A stretch of DNA of 64,000 nt from Vicinamibacterales bacterium (GCA_050247355.1 JBFWUK010000008.1:114358-178357); one strand, 5' to 3'; counted from the first letter of the stretch, positions 7,084-57,215 are shown. Notes: generated by a model from the sequence alone, not told the origin. A program made the numbers and translations.

Positions 7084-7111
7084 TTTGTGAAACATAGTAC
7101 AATGTCCGGCT

Positions 7112-7873
7112 GTGGAAGCAATTGAACATCCCTCCCCACTAGTCGCGATCATCAACGCGATCATCGCCAGCCTTGGCATTCACGCCGAGATCCCCGACCA
7201 CATGGTCTTTGTCGGGTTGATCACGCTGTTCATCCTGTTCATCGGCCTGGCCATCCGCTCGCAGCTGAGCGTCGAGAAGCCCGGCAAGCTCCAGATCATC
7301 CTCGAGGATGTCGTTTCCTTTCTGGTCGGCGTGCTCGAAGACAACATGGGCAAGAAGGGCCGGAAGTACCTGCCGCTGCTCGGCACACTGTTCGTGTTCA
7401 TCCTGCTCGGCAACCTGATGGGCCAGGTGCCCGGCCTTGGCTCGCCCACCAGCAACATCAACGTGCCGTTTGCGTGCGCGCTCACGCTGTGGCTCTACTA
7501 TCACGCCCAGGGCGTGATCGCGAACGGGCCGGTCAACTACATCAAGCACTTCGCGGTCATGCCGGGCGTGCCGATTGCGCTGGCGCCGATGATCTTCGTA
7601 ATTGAAATCATCAGCCACCTGTCGCGCGTGCTGTCGCTGACGCTGCGCCTGTTCGGCAACATCTTCGGCGAGCACCTCGTGGTGCTGATTCTGGCCAGCA
7701 TCGTGCCGTTCATCGCGCCGCTGCCGATTCAGTTCCTGGGGTTGATCGTCGGGCCCCTGCAGGCGTTCATCTTCCTGACGCTGGGGGCCATCTACCTCAC
7801 GGCCGCCACGCACGTGGATGACCACGGCGACGAGTACGGCGGCGAACACCACGGCCCCGCCGCCGCCCACTGA
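7112..7873 (+). CDS. atpB: F0F1 ATP synthase subunit a
   Basis: 253 aa, multi-TM. Signature LSLTLRLFGNIFGEHLVV with the essential Arg; PTSNINV motif. GTG start. No atpE follows it. Confidence 0.9.
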   Translation: MEAIEHPSPLVAIINAIIASLGIHAEIPDHMVFVGLITLFILFIGLAIRSQLSVEKPGKLQIILEDVVSFLVGVLEDNMGKKGRKYLPLLGTLFVFILLGNLMGQVPGLGSPTSNINVPFACALTLWLYYHAQGVIANGPVNYIKHFAVMPGVPIALAPMIFVIEIISHLSRVLSLTLRLFGNIFGEHLVVLILASIVPFIAPLPIQFLGLIVGPLQAFIFLTLGAIYLTAATHVDDHGDEYGGEHHGPAAAH

Positions 7874-25039: not shown

Positions 25040-25380
25040 TGGTCGCACACGTCGTGCTGTTGCGCGTGAAGGCCTCGCTGTCAGAAGCGGAGCGCGAAGC
25101 GCTGCTCGAAGCCATGCGCCTGGCCTTCACCGGCATTTCCGAAATCCGGCGCGTGCGCATTGGCCGCCGTATCCGGATCGGGCGGGGCTACGAAGCACAA
25201 ATGGCCGAGCACTTCGAGTACTCGGCCATCATCGAGTTCGACAGCGAAGCGGACCTACGCGCCTACCTGGATCACCCGCAGCACCAGGAGCTAGGCCGGC
25301 GCTTCTTCGAGTCGGCCGACGCCGCGCTGGTGTACGACTACAGGTTCGTTGACGCCGAGCACGTGCGACAGTTGATCTGA
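25039..25380 (+). CDS. Dabb (stress-responsive alpha/beta barrel) domain protein
   Basis: 113 aa. VAHVVLLRVKASLSEAEREALLEAM...YLDHPQHQEL pattern. GTG start overlaps the upstream TAG by 1 nt. Confidence 0.75.
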   Translation: MVAHVVLLRVKASLSEAEREALLEAMRLAFTGISEIRRVRIGRRIRIGRGYEAQMAEHFEYSAIIEFDSEADLRAYLDHPQHQELGRRFFESADAALVYDYRFVDAEHVRQLI

Positions 25381-37973: not shown

Positions 37974-38083
37974 AGCCACCGAGGACTCAGAGAACACAGA
38001 GCAATCTTTGGAAATGCAAAGACAAGCAACACCGCGGCAGACCCAAAAGGTCTTCCTCCGTGTCCTCGGTGTCCTCTGTGGCT
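37974..38083. repeat. MITE-like element with ~28-nt terminal inverted repeats made of CACAGAGGA 9-mers (copy B)
   Basis: Left arm agccaccgaggactcagagaacacagag. Right arm ctccgtgtcctcggtgtcctctgtggct. Lies in the wzm/wzt spacer. Confidence 0.8.
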
Positions 38084-39365: not shown

Positions 39366-40917
<1,552 letters not shown>

Positions 40918-40918
<1 letters not shown>

Positions 40919-41790
40919 TATGTCGCTTGCGCTCCCGAAACCACTTCGATAATTTCACGCGTAATCGCGGCCTGACGGACCTTGTTCATGTAGAGCGTCA
41001 GCCGATCGACCATTTCCTTCGCGTTGCGCGTGGCGCTGTCCATCGACTGCATGCGCGCGGCGTGCTCGGCGGCCGACGATTCGAGCAGCGCGCGATTGAC
41101 CTGCACCGCCACGTGCATTGGCAGCAGCGTGTTCAGCAACTGCTGCGGATCGGGCTCGAACAGGTAATCGGCCCCTTGAACCGCCGGTGCCTCAGCCTCA
41201 AGGCGAGGAATGGGCAACAGCTTCTCGATCACCACGCGCTGGGAAATGACCGACTTGAACTCGTTGTAAACCAGGTAGACCGAACTGATGTCTGGACCGA
41301 GGAATTCCTTGATCGCGGTGGAGGCAATCGCCTGCGCGTGCGACCACTTGACGTTCTGGAACAGCCCGATCTCTTCGTACATCACGTCGAAGCCGCGGCG
41401 CTGGAAGAAGTCGCGCGCCTTGCGGCCGACCAGCGCCATGGCGACGTCGCGGCCGTCGGGCGACTTCGGCTGGTCGATCGTGAACTGCAGCGCGGCCTTG
41501 GCGACGTTGGTGTTGAAGCTGCCGCACAGGCCGCGGTCGGCGGTGATCACGATCAGCAGCGTGCGCGCCGCCAGCGGATCGTCGTTGAGCAGCGGGTGGG
41601 CGGCGTGGTCGGTCCGCGTCGCCAGGTTGTTGAACACCCGCAGCATCTCCTGAGCGTACGGACGGCTCTTGAGAATGCGCTCCTGCGCCCGGCGCAGCTT
41701 GGACGACGAGACCATTTTCATGGCCTTCGTGATCTGCTGCGTCGACTTGACCGCGCGAACGCGCCGGCGAATGTCTATCAGTGAAGGCAT
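40918..41790 (-). CDS. atpG: F1 ATP synthase subunit gamma
   Basis: 290 aa. IDIRRRVRAVKSTQQITKAMKMVSSSKLRRAQ N-terminus and ITREIIEVVSGA C-terminus. Confidence 0.95.
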
Positions 41791-41793
41791 CGG

Positions 41794-43329
<1,536 letters not shown>

Positions 43330-43340
43330 AAGCTTCTTGG

Positions 43341-43463
43341 GTCCGCCTAAAGGCGGACGCTACATCCCCACCAATGTGGTGTCCGGCTTCAGCCGGACCT
43401 TGCTGGTCCCACTAATGTGGCGTCCGGCTTAACCGGACTGTGCCAGTCCGCCTGAAGGCGGAC
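43341..43463. repeat. BIME-like cluster of four REP-like hairpins (atpH/atpA spacer)
   Basis: Hairpins at 43341-43358 (+gctacatcc), 43381-43398 (preceded by ccaatgtggt), 43422-43438 (preceded by ctaatgtggc) and 43446-43463. Orientations alternate. Confidence 0.88.
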
Positions 43464-43464
43464 T

Positions 43465-44007
43465 CTACTTGACTAACTCCTGCCTCAGCCGCTGCAACTG
43501 CGTGCGCACGCTGCCGTCGTACACCGTGCTGCCAATCGTCGCCACCACCCCGCCAAGCAGCTCGGGATCGACGCGGACCGATAGATCCACCTGCTTGCCG
43601 GTCACCTTGCCGAGGCTGTCGGCCAGCGCCTTCGTCTTCTCGGGCGACAGGGCCACCGCGCTGGTCACTTCGGCGCGGACAATGTTCTGGTGCTTGAGCA
43701 GCCGATCGCGAAAGGCGGCCGCGAGCTCGGGAATGAAGGCGAGCTTGCGGCTTTGCGCCAGCAACACCAGCAGCTTCTTCACCGGCGCGCTCAGGCTCAT
43801 CTTGTCGGCGACCGCTTCCATCAGCGACTGGCGGGCGGCGTCGGTCACGCCGCTGCGGCCCGAGGCGTCGGCCAGCTCGGGGCTGGCGCTCATCATGGCG
43901 ACCACGGCCTGCAGGTCGCGATCGATTTGCGCGAGGTCGTTCTTCTCCTCGAGGGCGACGTCGAACAGCGCTTTGGCGTAGCGATTGGCCGAAGTTCTCA
44001 GCGACAT
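43465..44007 (-). CDS. atpH: F1 ATP synthase subunit delta (OSCP)
   Basis: 180 aa. RYAKALFDVALEE N-terminus and OSCP-like C-terminus. TAATG overlap with atpF. Confidence 0.85.
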   Translation of the reverse strand: MSLRTSANRYAKALFDVALEEKNDLAQIDRDLQAVVAMMSASPELADASGRSGVTDAARQSLMEAVADKMSLSAPVKKLLVLLAQSRKLAFIPELAAAFRDRLLKHQNIVRAEVTSAVALSPEKTKALADSLGKVTGKQVDLSVRVDPELLGGVVATIGSTVYDGSVRTQLQRLRQELVK

Positions 44008-44633
44008 TAGTTGTTCTTGACCTGGTTCAGGTACTGGTCGACGAGCCGGTCCTGATCGGCGGCGGTCGTTTCCTTCTTGATGCGCTCGGTGGCCAGCGCC
44101 ACTGACAGGTCGGCGGCGTGCTCGAGAATGTCCTTCTTCGCCAGTCGCACCTGCAGGTCGATCTCGCGGCGTGTCTGCTCGAGCAGGCGTTCGCGATCGG
44201 CGGCGGCGGCGGCGGCGATGCGCTGCTCCTCGGCGACGATGTCTTCGGCGCCGCGGCTGCGCAGCGTGTTCAATTCACCGGGCAGGGCTTGCAGCTTCTG
44301 TTCGATGGCGGCGAGCTGGGCGGTGGCCGCAGCCTTGAGTTCCGCCGCCTCGACGAGGTCCTTGCGAATGGTGGCGCTGCGCGTGGCAAGGTATTCCTTC
44401 AGGGGACCGTTGCCGAAGTAGTAGATCACGCCGACGAAGATGATGAAGTTGGCGATCGGCCAGCCGAGCCCGAGCAGCATTTCGCCGATGCTCTGGTCGT
44501 GGTGTGCACCGTCCGCTGCCGGCGCGTGCTCCTGGGCGAAGGTCACGGCCGAAAACAGCAGCACCAAGGCCGCCGTCACGGCGGCGCCTAGTTTGTTCTT
44601 TAATTCACAAGCGGCGAGGAATGTGGTCTGCAC
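44007..44633 (-). CDS. atpF: F0 ATP synthase subunit b
   Basis: 208 aa. One TM segment (WPIANFIIFVGVIYYF), then a long charged Ala/Glu/Arg helix. Unusually long N-terminal signal-like extension. Confidence 0.78.
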   Translation of the reverse strand: MQTTFLAACELKNKLGAAVTAALVLLFSAVTFAQEHAPAADGAHHDQSIGEMLLGLGWPIANFIIFVGVIYYFGNGPLKEYLATRSATIRKDLVEAAELKAAATAQLAAIEQKLQALPGELNTLRSRGAEDIVAEEQRIAAAAAADRERLLEQTRREIDLQVRLAKKDILEHAADLSVALATERIKKETTAADQDRLVDQYLNQVKNN

Positions 44634-44653
44634 TACTGGTTCCTGCCTTGTTA

Positions 44654-45079
44654 CTAGGAAGCCCGGCCGAGCACGCGGTTGACAATGGCGCCGGCCAAGT
44701 TGTTTGCGTCACGGTCGAGCGTCTCGCGGGCGGCCTGGGATTCCTGCTGCACCCGGGCGGTGGCGGACTTCAATTCCCGTTCGACGGTGGCGCGGGTGTC
44801 GGCAAGCAGCGCGGCGCGCTTGTCGAGCGCGGCCTTTCGCATGTCATCCATCTGCCCGTACACCTCGGCGCGCGCCGCATTGAGTTTCTGATCGTATTCA
44901 GCGGATGCCGCCGCCGCTTTGTGCGCCGCGGATTCGGCGAGCTCGCGCGCGCCCCGCACGGCGTTGGTGCGTTGATCGATGACCTGCAGGATCGGCTTGA
45001 ACACCAGGCTGTTCAACAGATAGGTGCACAAGAGCAGGAAAGCGACGACCCAAAGGGTGGTTATGTCTGGTGTTAACAA
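44654..45079 (-). CDS. F0 ATP synthase subunit b' (second b-type subunit)
   Basis: 141 aa. TM segment LWVVAFLLLCTYLLNSLVFKPI, then a charged helix. TTG start as given by the track. Confidence 0.72.
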   Translation of the reverse strand: MLTPDITTLWVVAFLLLCTYLLNSLVFKPILQVIDQRTNAVRGARELAESAAHKAAAASAEYDQKLNAARAEVYGQMDDMRKAALDKRAALLADTRATVERELKSATARVQQESQAARETLDRDANNLAGAIVNRVLGRAS

Positions 45080-45185
45080 ACGTCTAAATGTATCACGGTC
45101 AGACGGACGGGGGCCACAGGGGACACCGAGAACTGAGAGCCAATACCCGTGCCCAGAACGCTATAAATTTGGGCAAACGACAAAA

Positions 45186-46232
45186 TTACCTGACTCTTAT
45201 GCGATTCGACTCGCCTGCTTCCGCAGATCCCACAAAACAGGCCTGAACTCCGGCTCCAATCAGAGCTGTCAGCGCCTGGTCGGCTTGATCGGCCGCGACC
45301 GCCAGAAACAGGCCGCCCGATGTCTGGGGGTCGAAGAGCAGGTCCCTAAGCTCGTCCTTAACAGAGTCGGCAAACGCGACGCCCACCGCGAAGTGGTCAC
45401 GGTTGGTGCCCATGCCGCCTGACTTGTTGCGGCCGACCATGTCGACCACGCCCGGAATCAGCGGCAGCGACGCCGCGTCGAGGACGAGGGTCACATGGCT
45501 GGCCGCCGCCATTTCCGAACCGTGGCCGGCCAAGCCGAAGCCCGTGATGTCGGTGCAGGCATGCACGCCGTCGAAGCCGGCGATTGCCTCTGCCGCCGCC
45601 TTGTTGAGGGTCCGCATGGAAGCCACGGCGTGTTCCACGACGCTCTCCGGCGCGCGGCCGAACTTGATCGCCGTGCCAACAATCCCCGTTCCGAGCGGCT
45701 TGGTCAGGATCAGGCGATCGCCAACCCGGGCGCCGGCGTTGGTGAGGATGCGCCTGGGATCGACCGCGCCGGTGACCGAGTAGCCGAACTTGATCTCGCG
45801 ATCCTGCACGGTGTGGCCGCCGAGCAACGCGACGCCCGCTTCGCGCAGCTTGTCGAATCCGCCGCGGAAGATCTGCGCGATGTCGTCGGTCTGCAGGCCG
45901 TCTTGAGGGAACGCGGCAATCGCCAGGGCGGTGAGAGGACGGCCGCCCATCGCATAGACGTCGCTCAACGAGTTCGCGGCGGCGATTTGTCCGTAGAGAT
46001 ACGGGTCGTCCACGATCGGCGTGAAGAAGTCGACCGTCTGGACCAGCGCCGGTCCGCTCTCCCACGCGTACACACCGGCATCGTCCGCAGTCCTGTAGTC
46101 AACCAGGATACGTGGGTCGGTTTGAACTGGTATGCCGCTCAGGACCTGAGCGAGCTCGCCTGCGGCGAGTTTGCTCGCTCAACCAGCGCAGCTGACCATC
46201 TCGGTCAGCCGGCGCCTTTGTTGTTCTGTCAT
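45186..46232 (-). CDS. selD: Selenide, water dikinase (selenophosphate synthetase), selenocysteine-containing
   Basis: The track ORF (45186..46073) starts mid-protein. Manual translation upstream is in frame: MTEQQRRRLTEMVSCAG-TGA-ASKLAAGELAQVLSGIPVQTDPRILVDYRTADDAGV-YAWESGP.... The TGA (46181-46179) sits in the G-[C/U]-x-x-K catalytic loop. ATG at 46232. Confidence 0.85.
46136..46181 (-). promoter_or_regulatory. Candidate bacterial SECIS: hairpins 3' of the selD UGA
   Basis: mRNA UGAGCGAGCAAACUCGCCGCAGGCGAGCUCGCUCAGGUCCUGAGCG. Option 1: CGCUCA-GGUCC-UGAGCG, with an apical GGUC-type loop about 33 nt after the UGA. Option 2: a 9-bp stem UGAGCGAGC/GCUCGCUCA that includes the UGA. Confidence 0.5.
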
Positions 46233-46251
46233 AAGAGATTCGCTACCTATT

Positions 46252-46335
46252 TGCCACCGGGGACACAGAGGACACTGAGCAACCTTTGGGCGGTCTTCAA
46301 AAAGTTGCTCTGTGTCCTCGGTGTCCTCTGTGGCC
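46252..46335. repeat. MITE-like element with CACAGAGGA-type inverted repeats (copy A)
   Basis: Left arm tgccaccggggacacagaggacactgagcaac. Right arm gttgctctgtgtcctcggtgtcctctgtggcc. 20-nt loop. Abuts the parB TAG. Confidence 0.85.
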
Positions 46336-48771: not shown

Positions 48772-48890
48772 TAGCCACAGAGGACGCAGAGGACACAGAG
48801 AAATTGTTCGGAAATGCGACTCCGGGGCTTTTCGAACCTTTGTATTTCAATGAAGGGTTGGCTCTGTGTTCTCTGCGTCCTCTGTGGCTA
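48772..48890. repeat. MITE-like element with 29-nt terminal inverted repeats (copy C, best preserved)
   Basis: tagccacagaggacgcagaggacacagag ... ctctgtgttctctgcgtcctctgtggcta: 28/29 complementary. 61-nt loop sharing ggaaatgc with copy B. The right end supplies the mnmG TAG stop. Confidence 0.9.
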
Positions 48891-52811: not shown

Positions 52812-54605
52812 TTATTTTGCAACGCGCCTCGCCGGCGCGCCAATCAAATAGTTGGTGGCGTATTGCTGGCCGATGGTCCACACCGTGCTGACCAGCCAGT
52901 AGATCACCAGGCCGCTCGGGAACGACAGCGACATGAAGGTGAACATGATCGGCATGAACATCATGATCTTCTGCTGCGCCGGGTCCGCCGTGGTCGGCGT
53001 CATCTTGGTCTGCCAGAACTGCGCGACGCCCATCAGGACCGGGGTGATGAACAGCGGATCGGGCGCCGACAGGTTGGTGATCCACGCAAAGAACGTGGCG
53101 CCGCGGATTTCGATCGCCACCGACAGCATGGCGTAAAACGCGAACAGGAACGGCATGGTCAACAGCATCGGCACGCAGCCGCTGGCCGGGTTCACGCCCT
53201 TGGTCTTGTAGAGCTCCATCACCTCGGTGTTCATCTTCTGCCGCTCGGGGTCGGTGATCTTGTACTTCGCGTAGCGATCCTGGATCGCCTTCATCTGCGG
53301 CTGCAGCTCCTGCATCTTCTTCATCGACACCACGCTCTTGTGGCGGAGCGGGAACATCGCGAGGTTGATCAGGATGGTGAGGACGACGATCGACCAGCCC
53401 CAGTTGCCGATGTAGCCGTGGACCCACTGCAGCGCGTTCAGCAGCGGCACCGCCAGCCACGAGAACATGCCGAAGTGAATCGACCGCACCAGTTCGGTGT
53501 CGACGGCCTTGAGTACGTCAAACGCCTTCGGGCCGAAGTAGAACCGCGCCTGCTCCTGCGGCACCTGGTAGCGCACCGAGTAAGTCTCGTAGGTCGCAAA
53601 GCGGGCCGGCTCGTTGGCAATCGGCAGGTTCACCGGGGCGTAGTCGATGCGGAACGGGACCGGCGTGGCCTCGTTCAGCAGCAGCGAGGCAAAGTAGTGG
53701 TCCGAAACACCGGCGTACCGGAAGGAGCCTTCCTGTGAACCCGGCGCCGTGTGCGGCACGCGTTCGACATCGCCGTCCTTGTAAATCATCGGCTGCGCCG
53801 GGACGACGCTGTTGGGCGAGAAGAATGATGACGGCGGGCGGTGCGCGATCTCGTCGCCCAGAGCCGGCCCCCAGTGAATCGCCGGGTTGAGGCGGACCTG
53901 GCCCAATTGCACGACGGTGCCGAAGGTCACCAGATAGCCACGCGGCTCGAGCGTGAACTTCTTGGTCACGCTCAACCCGTCGGAGGTTGCCATTTCAAAA
54001 GTCAGCGTCTGGGCGCCGGCGGTCGCATCGACCCGGTCAGGCTCACCGGGAGGGTTGCCTCCACCCGTGACAACCCGATAGAGGGCGCCGTTGATGCGCT
54101 CCGAGAGCGCCGGGTCGTCAACCACCAGCGAGAATGGCTTCACGGCGTCGGCGCTAAAACTCTGCGGCACGAGGTCGAGCAGGGATCCGTCTTCGTTGCG
54201 ATACTCCTTCAATACCCAATGCAACAGCCGGCCGCCGCGATTGGTAAAGGTGGCTCGCACGGTTGTCGTCTCGACGACGATCTCGCGGTCGGTGGTCTCG
54301 CCGACGGTGATCGTCGGACCGGCAGGGGCGGCTGGCGTCGCATTGCCCATCTGCGCCGCGGGCAGCCCCAAGGGGGTCACGCCACCAGCGGCTGCCGGCG
54401 CCGGCACCGGCGCCGACTGGTTCGCCGGCCGGGTCAGCGCCGCCATGCTGCCAGGAGCAGGCGCGGCAGGACCCGGCGCCTGCCCCGCTGTGGTTCCACT
54501 CTGGGGTGCAGCTGGAGCAGAGGCCGGGGGAGGCATCACAAAGCGCTGGAACAGGAACAGCACCAGGAATGACAGGGTGATCGCTATGAGGACTCGACGT
54601 TCCAT
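52812..54605 (-). CDS. yidC: Membrane protein insertase YidC
   Basis: 597 aa. N-terminal TM, large periplasmic domain, conserved C-terminal 5-TM core (GCVPMLLTMPFLFAFY...). Confidence 0.92.
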   Translation of the reverse strand: MERRVLIAITLSFLVLFLFQRFVMPPPASAPAAPQSGTTAGQAPGPAAPAPGSMAALTRPANQSAPVPAPAAAGGVTPLGLPAAQMGNATPAAPAGPTITVGETTDREIVVETTTVRATFTNRGGRLLHWVLKEYRNEDGSLLDLVPQSFSADAVKPFSLVVDDPALSERINGALYRVVTGGGNPPGEPDRVDATAGAQTLTFEMATSDGLSVTKKFTLEPRGYLVTFGTVVQLGQVRLNPAIHWGPALGDEIAHRPPSSFFSPNSVVPAQPMIYKDGDVERVPHTAPGSQEGSFRYAGVSDHYFASLLLNEATPVPFRIDYAPVNLPIANEPARFATYETYSVRYQVPQEQARFYFGPKAFDVLKAVDTELVRSIHFGMFSWLAVPLLNALQWVHGYIGNWGWSIVVLTILINLAMFPLRHKSVVSMKKMQELQPQMKAIQDRYAKYKITDPERQKMNTEVMELYKTKGVNPASGCVPMLLTMPFLFAFYAMLSVAIEIRGATFFAWITNLSAPDPLFITPVLMGVAQFWQTKMTPTTADPAQQKIMMFMPIMFTFMSLSFPSGLVIYWLVSTVWTIGQQYATNYLIGAPARRVAK

Positions 54606-54607
54606 CT

Positions 54608-54690
54608 TGTGATTTCTTGATCTCGTGATCTGGTGATCGGGGCTAATGCACCGGTGATCTGGTGATCTTGCGATCGATTGGGTGACCTAG
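54608..54690. repeat. GGTGATCT-type tandem repeats (7-8 units, 6 GATC sites)
   Basis: gtgatttcttgatctcgtgatctggtgatcgg...ggtgatctggtgatcttgcgatcgattgggtgacc. Spans the yidD 3' end and the yidD/yidC spacer. Confidence 0.8.
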
Positions 54691-55745: not shown

Positions 55746-55790
55746 CCCCGGCCTCCGTAAGAATAAGTCCTTAATAATCAATATTTTGTA

Positions 55791-57215
55791 GTGATGCCGA
55801 GCGTGACCATTTGGGACCAGGTCCTGAGCCGAATCGAAGATCAGGTCGGCCGGCATAGCTTCTCGACCTGGTTCAAGCCGACCACCCTTCTGGCGGACGC
55901 CGGCCAGACCCTCTCGATTCGCGTTCCCAACCTCCTGTTCGTGGAATGGCTGCCCAAGCACTACTCGGTCGTGCTGGCCGAGGCCATGCGCGAGGTCGGC
56001 CGGCCGGGCGCTAAGCTGGTGTTCGTGCCAGACGGTGCGGCCTCCGGTGGCGCGGCCTCCGGTGGAGACACCCCTTCAGGGTGGCATGCGGCGGCCAACA
56101 CCCCAGGCAACGCTAAAGGGTTGCCTCAACCAGATCACGGCACGGAGGGTCAGGGCGCCAGCGTCCAGGTCACCAGTTCAGAAGCGGAACCGCTGCGCGC
56201 CGGCAGCCTGATCCCCCGCTACACCTTCGACACCTTCATCGTCGGGCCCTCGAACCAGTTCGCTCACGCCGCCTGCCGCGCCGTGGCCGAGACACCGTCG
56301 CGTTCGTATAACCCGCTGTTCATACACGGCGGCGTCGGCCTGGGCAAGACGCATTTGATGCATGCGATCGGGCATTACGTGGTTCAGCACCATCCCGGCC
56401 TCGTGCTCACGTATATCTCGTCCGAACGTTTCATGAACGAGATGATCAATGCGGTGCGGTTCGATCGCATTCTGGATTTCCGGTCGCGCTATCGCAGCGT
56501 CGACGTGCTGCTCGTCGACGACATCCAGTTCGTCTCCGGCAAGGAAGGCACGCAGAACGAGTTCTTCCACACCTTCAACGCGCTGCACGATGCCCAGAAG
56601 CAAATCGTCATCAGCAGCGACCGTCCGCCACATGAAATTCCCGCGCTCGAAGAGCGCCTGCGCTCGCGGTTCGAGTGGGGATTGATTGCCGACATCCAGT
56701 CGCCGGACCTCGAGACGAAGGTCGCCATTCTGAAGAAGAAGGCCGAAGGCGAGGCGCTGCAGTTACCCGATCACGTGGCGATGTACATGGCGACGCGGAT
56801 CAAATCGAACATCCGCGAACTGGAAGGGTCGCTGATTCGCCTGATCGCCTACGCCTCGCTCACCAGCAAGCCGCTGACCATCGAACTGGCGCAGGACGTG
56901 CTCAGGAACGTCATCGATCACGACGAGAAGGCCGTCACGATCGAACAGATCCAGAAGTTTGTTGCCGACTACTACCAGATGAAGCCGACTGAGATCCGGT
57001 CGCGCAACAACTCGAAGTCGGTGGCGATGCCGCGCCAGATTGCGATGTACTTGTGCAAGGCATTGACCCATGCGTCGCTGCCGGAGATTGGCCGGAGCTT
57101 TGGCGGCAAGCACCACTCGACGGTGATCCACTCGATCAAGAAAGTCGAGGAAATGCGCAAGAAAAGTGCTGAATTTGATCAGCAGGTGAAGAACCTGCTC
57201 GATCAGTTCAAATAG
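55791..57215 (+). CDS. dnaA: Chromosomal replication initiator protein DnaA
   Basis: 474 aa. Walker A GGVGLGKTHL, box VII, C-terminal DNA-binding signature IAMYLCKALTHASLPEIGRSFGGKHHSTVIHS. Confidence 0.97.
   Translation: MMPSVTIWDQVLSRIEDQVGRHSFSTWFKPTTLLADAGQTLSIRVPNLLFVEWLPKHYSVVLAEAMREVGRPGAKLVFVPDGAASGGAASGGDTPSGWHAAANTPGNAKGLPQPDHGTEGQGASVQVTSSEAEPLRAGSLIPRYTFDTFIVGPSNQFAHAACRAVAETPSRSYNPLFIHGGVGLGKTHLMHAIGHYVVQHHPGLVLTYISSERFMNEMINAVRFDRILDFRSRYRSVDVLLVDDIQFVSGKEGTQNEFFHTFNALHDAQKQIVISSDRPPHEIPALEERLRSRFEWGLIADIQSPDLETKVAILKKKAEGEALQLPDHVAMYMATRIKSNIRELEGSLIRLIAYASLTSKPLTIELAQDVLRNVIDHDEKAVTIEQIQKFVADYYQMKPTEIRSRNNSKSVAMPRQIAMYLCKALTHASLPEIGRSFGGKHHSTVIHSIKKVEEMRKKSAEFDQQVKNLLDQFK
56105..56126. 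repeat. 22-nt palindrome AGGCAACGCTAAAGGGTTGCCT (family copy 3, inside the dnaA linker)
   Basis: Translated GGC AAC GCT AAA GGG TTG CCT = G N A K G L P, within the low-complexity domain II region. Confidence 0.9.

Follow-up and report, generated by a model that had tools for sequence, protein, structure and literature searches.

The gene at positions 45186 to 46232 of the window, by which we mean the whole stretch of 64,000 nucleotides that was analysed, belongs to an uncultured member of the Vicinamibacterales (Acidobacteriota) and raises a simple question: does the TGA near its beginning end translation, or is it read as selenocysteine (Sec)? The mechanical ORF track and a public gene caller both place a gene of 295 amino acids at 45186..46073 on the minus strand, starting with GTG. 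An identical product has been recorded by the public gene caller on the Logan contig of SRR27751816, and the Pfam families AIRS and AIRS_C match it. Yet the GTG corresponds to residue 54 of a full selenophosphate synthetase, as the preliminary description had suspected when it stated that the ORF track misses the N-terminus of SelD; this proved correct, and all features that it named were recovered at their coordinates by translation, folding and the ORF track.

The selD reading frame and its product

Translated from 46232 down to 45186 on the minus strand, the frame reads MTEQQRRRLTEMVSCAG*ASKLAAGELAQVLSGIPVQTDPRILVDYRTADDAGVYAWESGP..., with an ATG at 46232-46230, a TAA at 45188-45186 and 348 residues if the TGA is decoded; the residues that follow the TGA begin ASKLAAGELAQVLSGIP. 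Translation, HMM matches and an end-to-end alignment all agree on this full coding sequence, in which Sec would be residue 18. The 17 codons in front of it (46182..46232, minus strand), which ORF finders miss, include Cys15 and so give the motif C-x-x-U. Judging from these comparisons, the gene very probably encodes an ordinary full-length selenophosphate synthetase (SelD; selenide, water dikinase) with a catalytic Sec specified by UGA, and the first 53 residues would be lost to ORF finders because this catalytic residue is encoded by an in-frame UGA. The gene model is corrected accordingly, from a public call of 295 amino acids without the catalytic loop to a protein of 348 residues with Sec18.

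Nothing of this is new in kind. Sec-containing SelD, its SECIS inside the gene and its habitual misannotation are textbook knowledge. Among bacterial selenoprotein families FdhA is the most widespread and SelD ranks second (PMC1794560, PMC13188914); about a fifth of prokaryotic SelD genes carry Sec, always at the same position (PMC4561486), and SelD is frequently misannotated in GenBank and RefSeq owing to its UGA (PMC13326102). Acidobacteria stood on the list of selenoprotein-bearing groups already in 2006. Like other Sec-SelD genes of bacteria and archaea, the window gene combines an in-gene SECIS candidate just past the UGA with a truncated N-terminus as an annotation artefact.

Membership of the SelD family is demonstrated by both SelD equivalog models, each matched over its full length when Cys was put in place of the TGA: TIGR00476, the model by which the preliminary description had proposed to check the gene, gave 359.8 bits (cut-off 125; profile positions 1-310 of 311), and NF002098 gave 306.8 bits (cut-off 299). 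Alignment with E. coli SelD (3u0o; 334 residues, E = 8.6e-66) also extends over the whole length. In this alignment the UGA codon (46179..46181, minus strand), which lies in a G-U-A-S-K loop, falls on the catalytic Cys17 of the E. coli enzyme, precisely the position that had been claimed for it: A-G-U18-A-S-K21 stands opposite A-G-C17-G-C-K20 of 3u0o and G-C-A-A-K of 2yye, with the Lys at +3 conserved. The native Aquifex SelD carries Sec where the crystallised construct has the aligned Cys. The motifs DDAGV, VDFFTP, NSLSDVYAMGG and TDITGFGL, which contain the Asp and Asn residues for metal and ATP binding in the AIR-synthase-like fold, are conserved with respect to E. coli SelD. Selenophosphate synthetase activity is predicted.

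The E. coli and window enzymes share the equivalent residues Cys17 and U18, Lys20 and K21, and the Asp motifs. They differ in that E. coli SelD has a Cys codon (TGC) and no recoding signal where the window gene has UGA, and in that its second Cys is found at +2 (Cys19), whereas in the window SelD position +2 is Ser and the additional Cys is at -3. The SelD proteins of Aquifex aeolicus (2yye/2zod) and Acetomicrobium mobile (BSepDB) belong to the same family and have a single Sec site in a Gly-rich loop, G-U-A-[AS]-K. As a side observation, Cys15 (codon 46188-46190) and Sec18 form the sequence V-S-C-A-G-U in the clade of the window gene, a C-x-x-U arrangement that is reminiscent of redox selenoproteins; the Cys at -3 is absent from SelD of the Terriglobia type (V-K-A-A-G-U) and from Aquifex.

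The TGA as a conserved and probable sense codon

Is the TGA then a genuine codon? Taking one genome per species we collected 80 related loci, the closest of them from metagenome-assembled genomes (MAGs) of Vicinamibacterales (Acidobacteriota) with 76% and 74% identity, and parsed the catalytic column in 75 (Acidobacteriota, Chloroflexota, Desulfobacterota and others). It holds TGA in 67 and a Cys codon, TGC or TGT, in 8, so that the alternation of UGA and Cys at this column, expected from the preliminary description, is directly observed among the relatives.

Coding constraint is seen on both sides of the TGA. The ten codons before it specify a peptide, RLTEMVSCAG, that is conserved among relatives, and differences between the upstream codons fall mostly on the third position, with 68 there, 41 at position 1 and 31 at position 2. 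Counted by codon, 56 of the upstream differences are synonymous and 33 non-synonymous; downstream of the TGA the figures are 118 and 68. The synonymous switches upstream include multi-step changes between the Ser codons AGC and TCC and exchanges among the Arg codons CGG, CGC, CGT and CGA. Since the upstream codons evolve as coding sequence, the region before the TGA is translated in the frame that continues after it.

The TGA is not an assembly error either, because independent metagenome contigs from three or four runs reproduce it. Contigs from three landfill-metagenome runs are identical to the window over this region, and the TGA is likewise present in a soil-metagenome run and in a variant of a co-occurring strain. 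A reassigned genetic code was considered as well and is ruled out, because TGA is the normal stop of 14 of the 39 genes in the window.

All of this bears on the reading in which the TGA is a true stop, the locus being a pseudogene, an assembly error or a real gene for a 295-residue product started at GTG 46073. ORF finders and the public gene caller do deliver that product. Against it stand the occurrence of the same TGA in 67 species and in independent assemblies, the coding constraint on the 17 upstream codons, and the fact that the 295-residue product would be devoid of the Cys/Sec-Lys loop and of the DDAGV motif, although these parts have their aligned counterparts in the E. coli enzyme. 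We regard this explanation as effectively refuted.

Two of the relatives with Cys deserve mention. In a MAG labelled Solibacteraceae (locus L014) the catalytic codon is TGC (L014:3045-3047), no hairpin follows it, and the gene order around it, rsmG-parA-parB-selD-atpF'-atpF-atpH, is that of the window; as predicted proteins the two constitute a clean orthologous Sec/Cys replacement. A Cys-form (TGC) selD from Terriglobia, in the region of L017:3030, still folds a hairpin, GAGUCCAAGCAUCCUGGAUUC, at the site of the SECIS in its Sec-form relatives. This hairpin no longer passes the SECIS model described below and may well be left over from a recent conversion of Sec to Cys, of the kind described in PMC1794560.

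Hairpins downstream of the UGA

If the UGA is decoded as Sec, a SECIS, the mRNA hairpin bound by SelB, should lie just behind it. The preliminary description had pointed to two alternative folds, a 9-bp stem that includes the UGA and a hairpin further downstream, CGCUCA-GGUCC-UGAGCG. Both fold here. The second, which we call the distal hairpin (UCGCUCAG-GUC-CUGAGCGG; 46135..46153, minus strand), forms on its own a stem of 7-8 bp with a GUC triloop at -9.2 to -10.1 kcal/mol; the G-U of its loop lies at 46145-46144, with 33 nt between UGA and loop. We compared it with the published bSECIS model (PMC13188914), which allows a loop of 3-9 nt and an upper stem of 4-16 bp, places a G in the first two loop positions (the loop being usually N1-G-[G/U]-N-N2), and sets the distance from UGA to loop at 16-37 nt and the minimum free energy (MFE) at -7.5 kcal/mol or below. 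With 8 bp, the loop GUC, a spacing of 33 nt and -10.1 kcal/mol, the distal hairpin agrees with all four constraints, as had been anticipated for the sequence past the UGA; its spacing comes near the upper limit of the range. It can alternatively be read with 7 bp, a loop G-GUC-C and a spacing of 32 nt.

Such agreement in a single sequence is evidence of only modest weight. The same permissive model is passed by 80 of the 1685 TGA triplets in the window (4.7%), and 28 of them (1.7%) have a hairpin at least as stable. The relatives raise it well above chance. A hairpin that passes the model is present in 58 of the 67 relatives with TGA and in none of the 8 with Cys. We further compared the window with 27 relatives having the same ...ELAQVL... 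context in a joint alignment (A1; 28 sequences, no gaps; window position = 46188 minus column). Across these 28 sequences 90.9% of the cells of the distal hairpin (columns 34-54) are paired, and two of its pairs change in a compensatory manner: at pair 39-49, U-A (19 sequences) alternates with C-G (8), and pair 42-46 is G-C in 19, A-U in 4 and G-U in 4. The first change couples a synonymous change of Ala (GCU to GCC) with a replacement of Ser by Gly (AGC to GGC); in the second both substitutions are synonymous, CAG being replaced by CAA for Gln and CUG by UUG for Leu. Recognition by SelB gains no independent support from the invariance of G and U in the loop, because these two bases also begin a conserved Val codon.

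The stem that includes the UGA fares differently. In the 62 nt from the UGA onwards the MFE fold reaches -28.1 kcal/mol (z = -4.4), and its base is the 9-bp stem of UGAGCGAGC (46181-46173) with GCUCGCUCA (46155-46147); the whole element spans 46147..46181 on the minus strand and encloses a further, middle hairpin. This fold and the distal hairpin are mutually exclusive, because both use 46155-46147. In the relatives, pairs 9-39, 12-36 and 14-34 of the UGA stem are broken in 9, 6 and 13 of the 28 sequences and are not compensated, and column 39 covaries with column 49 rather than with the invariant A of the UGA. As a conserved element the 9-bp stem is therefore rejected. Compensated pairs in the distal hairpin and failing pairs in the UGA stem together indicate that selection maintains the former and not the latter. 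Hence, of the two folds proposed earlier, only the distal one has evolutionary support, and the alignment refines the preliminary description in identifying as the conserved hairpin the one whose loop lies 33 nt from the UGA.

The resemblance to the SECIS of E. coli fdhF that had been noted earlier is a partial one. Both hairpins are found inside the coding sequence, and both have the apical motif CAGGUC(C)UG with its G-U. The upper stem of fdhF contains a bulged U, whereas the stem in the window is perfect, and the distance from UGA to loop is ~18 nt in fdhF and 33 nt here. Searches of Rfam gave no match to this hairpin, to any SECIS family or to another family of relevance, either in the whole window at gathering thresholds or in 46050-46260 at E <= 10. 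Given the missing bulge, the long spacing and the lack of an Rfam match, the distal hairpin is better assigned to the generic bSECIS class than to the fdhF type. A search of the window for further CARGUNYUG hairpins behind a TGA returned the selD site only. The fdhF SECIS also resembles the element in selD in that base pairing of the lower-stem region with the UGA is possible and has to be opened by the ribosome, as in the general mechanism reviewed in PMC13188914.

A similar course of events might be proposed for selD. Translation would initiate at ATG 46232, and the favoured UGA-containing stem would be unwound by the approaching ribosome, which would free its 3' arm for the distal hairpin. 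With the UGA in the ribosomal A site, SelB and Sec-tRNA(Sec) would be recruited by a hairpin in the mRNA of the gene itself, for which the distal hairpin (46153-46135, with its G-U apical loop 33 nt past the UGA) is the best candidate. Sec would then be inserted and translation would run on to the TAA at 45188-45186.

The middle hairpin, CUCGCC-GCA-GGCGAG (46155..46169, minus strand), is located between the UGA and the distal hairpin, has 6 bp and folds alone at -8.7 kcal/mol. It could compete for the role of SelB site in an otherwise genuine Sec-selD, either by itself (46169-46155, loop GCA at +15 nt) or as one half of a two-hairpin composite, in which the middle helix, as a compact spacer, would place the distal loop as far from the ribosome as is usual. 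Its stability (z = -3.8) and the pairing of 77% of its cells across the relatives speak for this, as does its place nearer to the UGA, where other clades have their selD SECIS loop (+19/20 in Terriglobia and others, and in Acetomicrobium in BSepDB). But compensatory change in A1 is nearly nil, limited to single cases at pairs 21-31 and 24-28, and 12 of the 28 sequences lack pair 19-33 while 14 lack pair 24-28. The common G-[G/U] is missing from its loop (GCA here, GCN in general), and at 15 nt its spacing falls below the 16-nt minimum of the model, which puts it just outside the usual bSECIS pattern; moreover, its complementarity is largely due to Leu-Ala...Gly-Glu codons in a GC-rich genome. 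We therefore consider a SelB site in the middle hairpin or in a composite unlikely and retain the distal hairpin as the favoured candidate. The middle hairpin is possibly a spacer or an auxiliary helix, and any role that it or the alternative UGA stem may have would be of modest interest.

The only mildly interesting point of the locus is the distance of the conserved hairpin from the UGA, which is unusually large for a selD gene. The SECIS-like loop of selD lies ~19-20 nt past the UGA in Terriglobia, Desulfobacterota and others, as for example in GAGUCCAA-GUAUU-UUGGACUC; in Vicinamibacterales and Blastocatellia it lies 33 nt past it. Acetomicrobium SelD (BSepDB) and most relatives outside these two groups follow the +19-20 arrangement, in contrast to the window gene with its loop at +33 and a small hairpin in between. 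Both hairpin sites occur within one orthologous protein alignment free of gaps (L015, L020-L030, L034 and L041-L074 against window positions 46135-46153). As a tentative and rather doubtful hypothesis, the selD SECIS of Vicinamibacterales and Blastocatellia might have been relocated 13 nt further from the UGA, with the small hairpin at the old site now serving as a spacer (a composite SECIS) or, together with the UGA stem, as a conformational switch that tunes SelD synthesis. If this were true, SECIS turnover would be documented for a single orthologous gene, and the distance between UGA and loop would be close to the maximum.

Probable selenocysteine decoding and the surroundings of selD

In the 64-kb window, none of the 39 ORFs annotated with NCBIfam is selA or selB, and a tRNA scan detected no tRNA-Sec. 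Decoding of Sec by this organism is therefore deduced from the gene itself; selA, selB and selC would presumably be located elsewhere in the genome. Scans of the 80 related loci detected a tRNA-Sec in one, L064, where it has the anticodon TCA and follows a TGA-form selD by 29 nt (L064:4049-4146). This locus comes from a complete chromosome of Candidatus Latescibacterota. When the metagenome contigs of runs X1-X3 were compared with this tRNA-Sec, only the generic 30 nt at its 3' end were matched, on tiny contigs. The neighbouring tRNA-Sec of L064 and the published co-occurrence of SelD with SelA and YbbB (PMC4561486) lend indirect support to Sec decoding.

It might be argued that the UGA is read through without Sec, by near-cognate Cys or Trp, after loss of the Sec machinery, so that the hairpin would be a stimulator of read-through only. 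Such a process would fit a window without genes for Sec machinery, and in insect SPS1 genes stem-loops beside the UGA do promote read-through without Sec (PMC4561486). Yet the alternation of UGA and Cys at the catalytic site, together with a hairpin fitting the SECIS model in UGA forms only, is the standard signature of a selenoprotein; nearly all prokaryotes with SelD have SelA and/or YbbB (PMC4561486); a tRNA-Sec stands beside selD in the TGA-form relative just described; and the residue in question, Sec or Cys, is catalytic. We consider read-through of this kind very improbable. By Sec insertion at UGA, the reading that we prefer, this uncultured Vicinamibacterales bacterium of soil and landfill is a probable selenocysteine user, and other TGA-interrupted genes of its genome (such as fdhA and thiol oxidoreductases) are worth checking. 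A scan for other TGA-split coding regions across the window revealed no other selenoprotein gene. One candidate, at 25378-25380 on the plus strand, was rejected: the frame downstream of it is Arg-rich nonsense, and an ORF of 113 amino acids simply ends there.

The window covers the chromosomal origin region, with dnaA, dnaN, gyrB and gyrA on the plus strand and yidC, mnmE, mnmG, rsmG, parA, parB, selD and the atp operon on the minus strand. SelD is encoded in a conserved origin-proximal cluster, rsmG-parA-parB-selD-atpF'FH, and the order parB-selD-atpF' is kept in all Vicinamibacterales relatives. A scan for promoter and terminator consensus sequences around selD found nothing. Two features of the wider region may be added. 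YidC (52812-54686, minus strand) and dnaA (55767-57215, plus strand) are divergently oriented, with rnpA/rpmH and oriC probably located in the ~1.1 kb between them, and atpB (7091-7873, plus strand) lies ~31 kb away from the rest of the atp operon (39366-45160, minus strand).

The gaps between genes contain a REP-like repeat, GGCCACAGRGGACACCGAG, with an internal period of 9 nt, GAGGACACN, at 38056-38083, 45112-45130, 46252-46335 and 48773-48889. Allowing up to 3 mismatches there are 10 copies, all between genes, against 0.07 expected. Inverted pairs of the repeat occupy the parB-selD and the rsmG-mnmG gaps. The pair between the parB stop and the selD start forms an intergenic hairpin of 82 nt (46253..46334, minus strand; -51.5 kcal/mol, z = -6.0), which is context only and no part of the recoding signal. 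In a co-occurring strain seen in three landfill-metagenome runs (word depth 5-12.5), contigs join 46211 directly to 46335; the absent 123 nt (46212-46334) comprise the hairpin of the repeat, the leader of selD and its first 7 codons. The parB stop codon is thereby followed directly, and in frame, by selD codon 8, and selD of that strain would need a start further downstream, for example at Met12. The repeat-containing spacer between parB and selD is thus polymorphic in the population.
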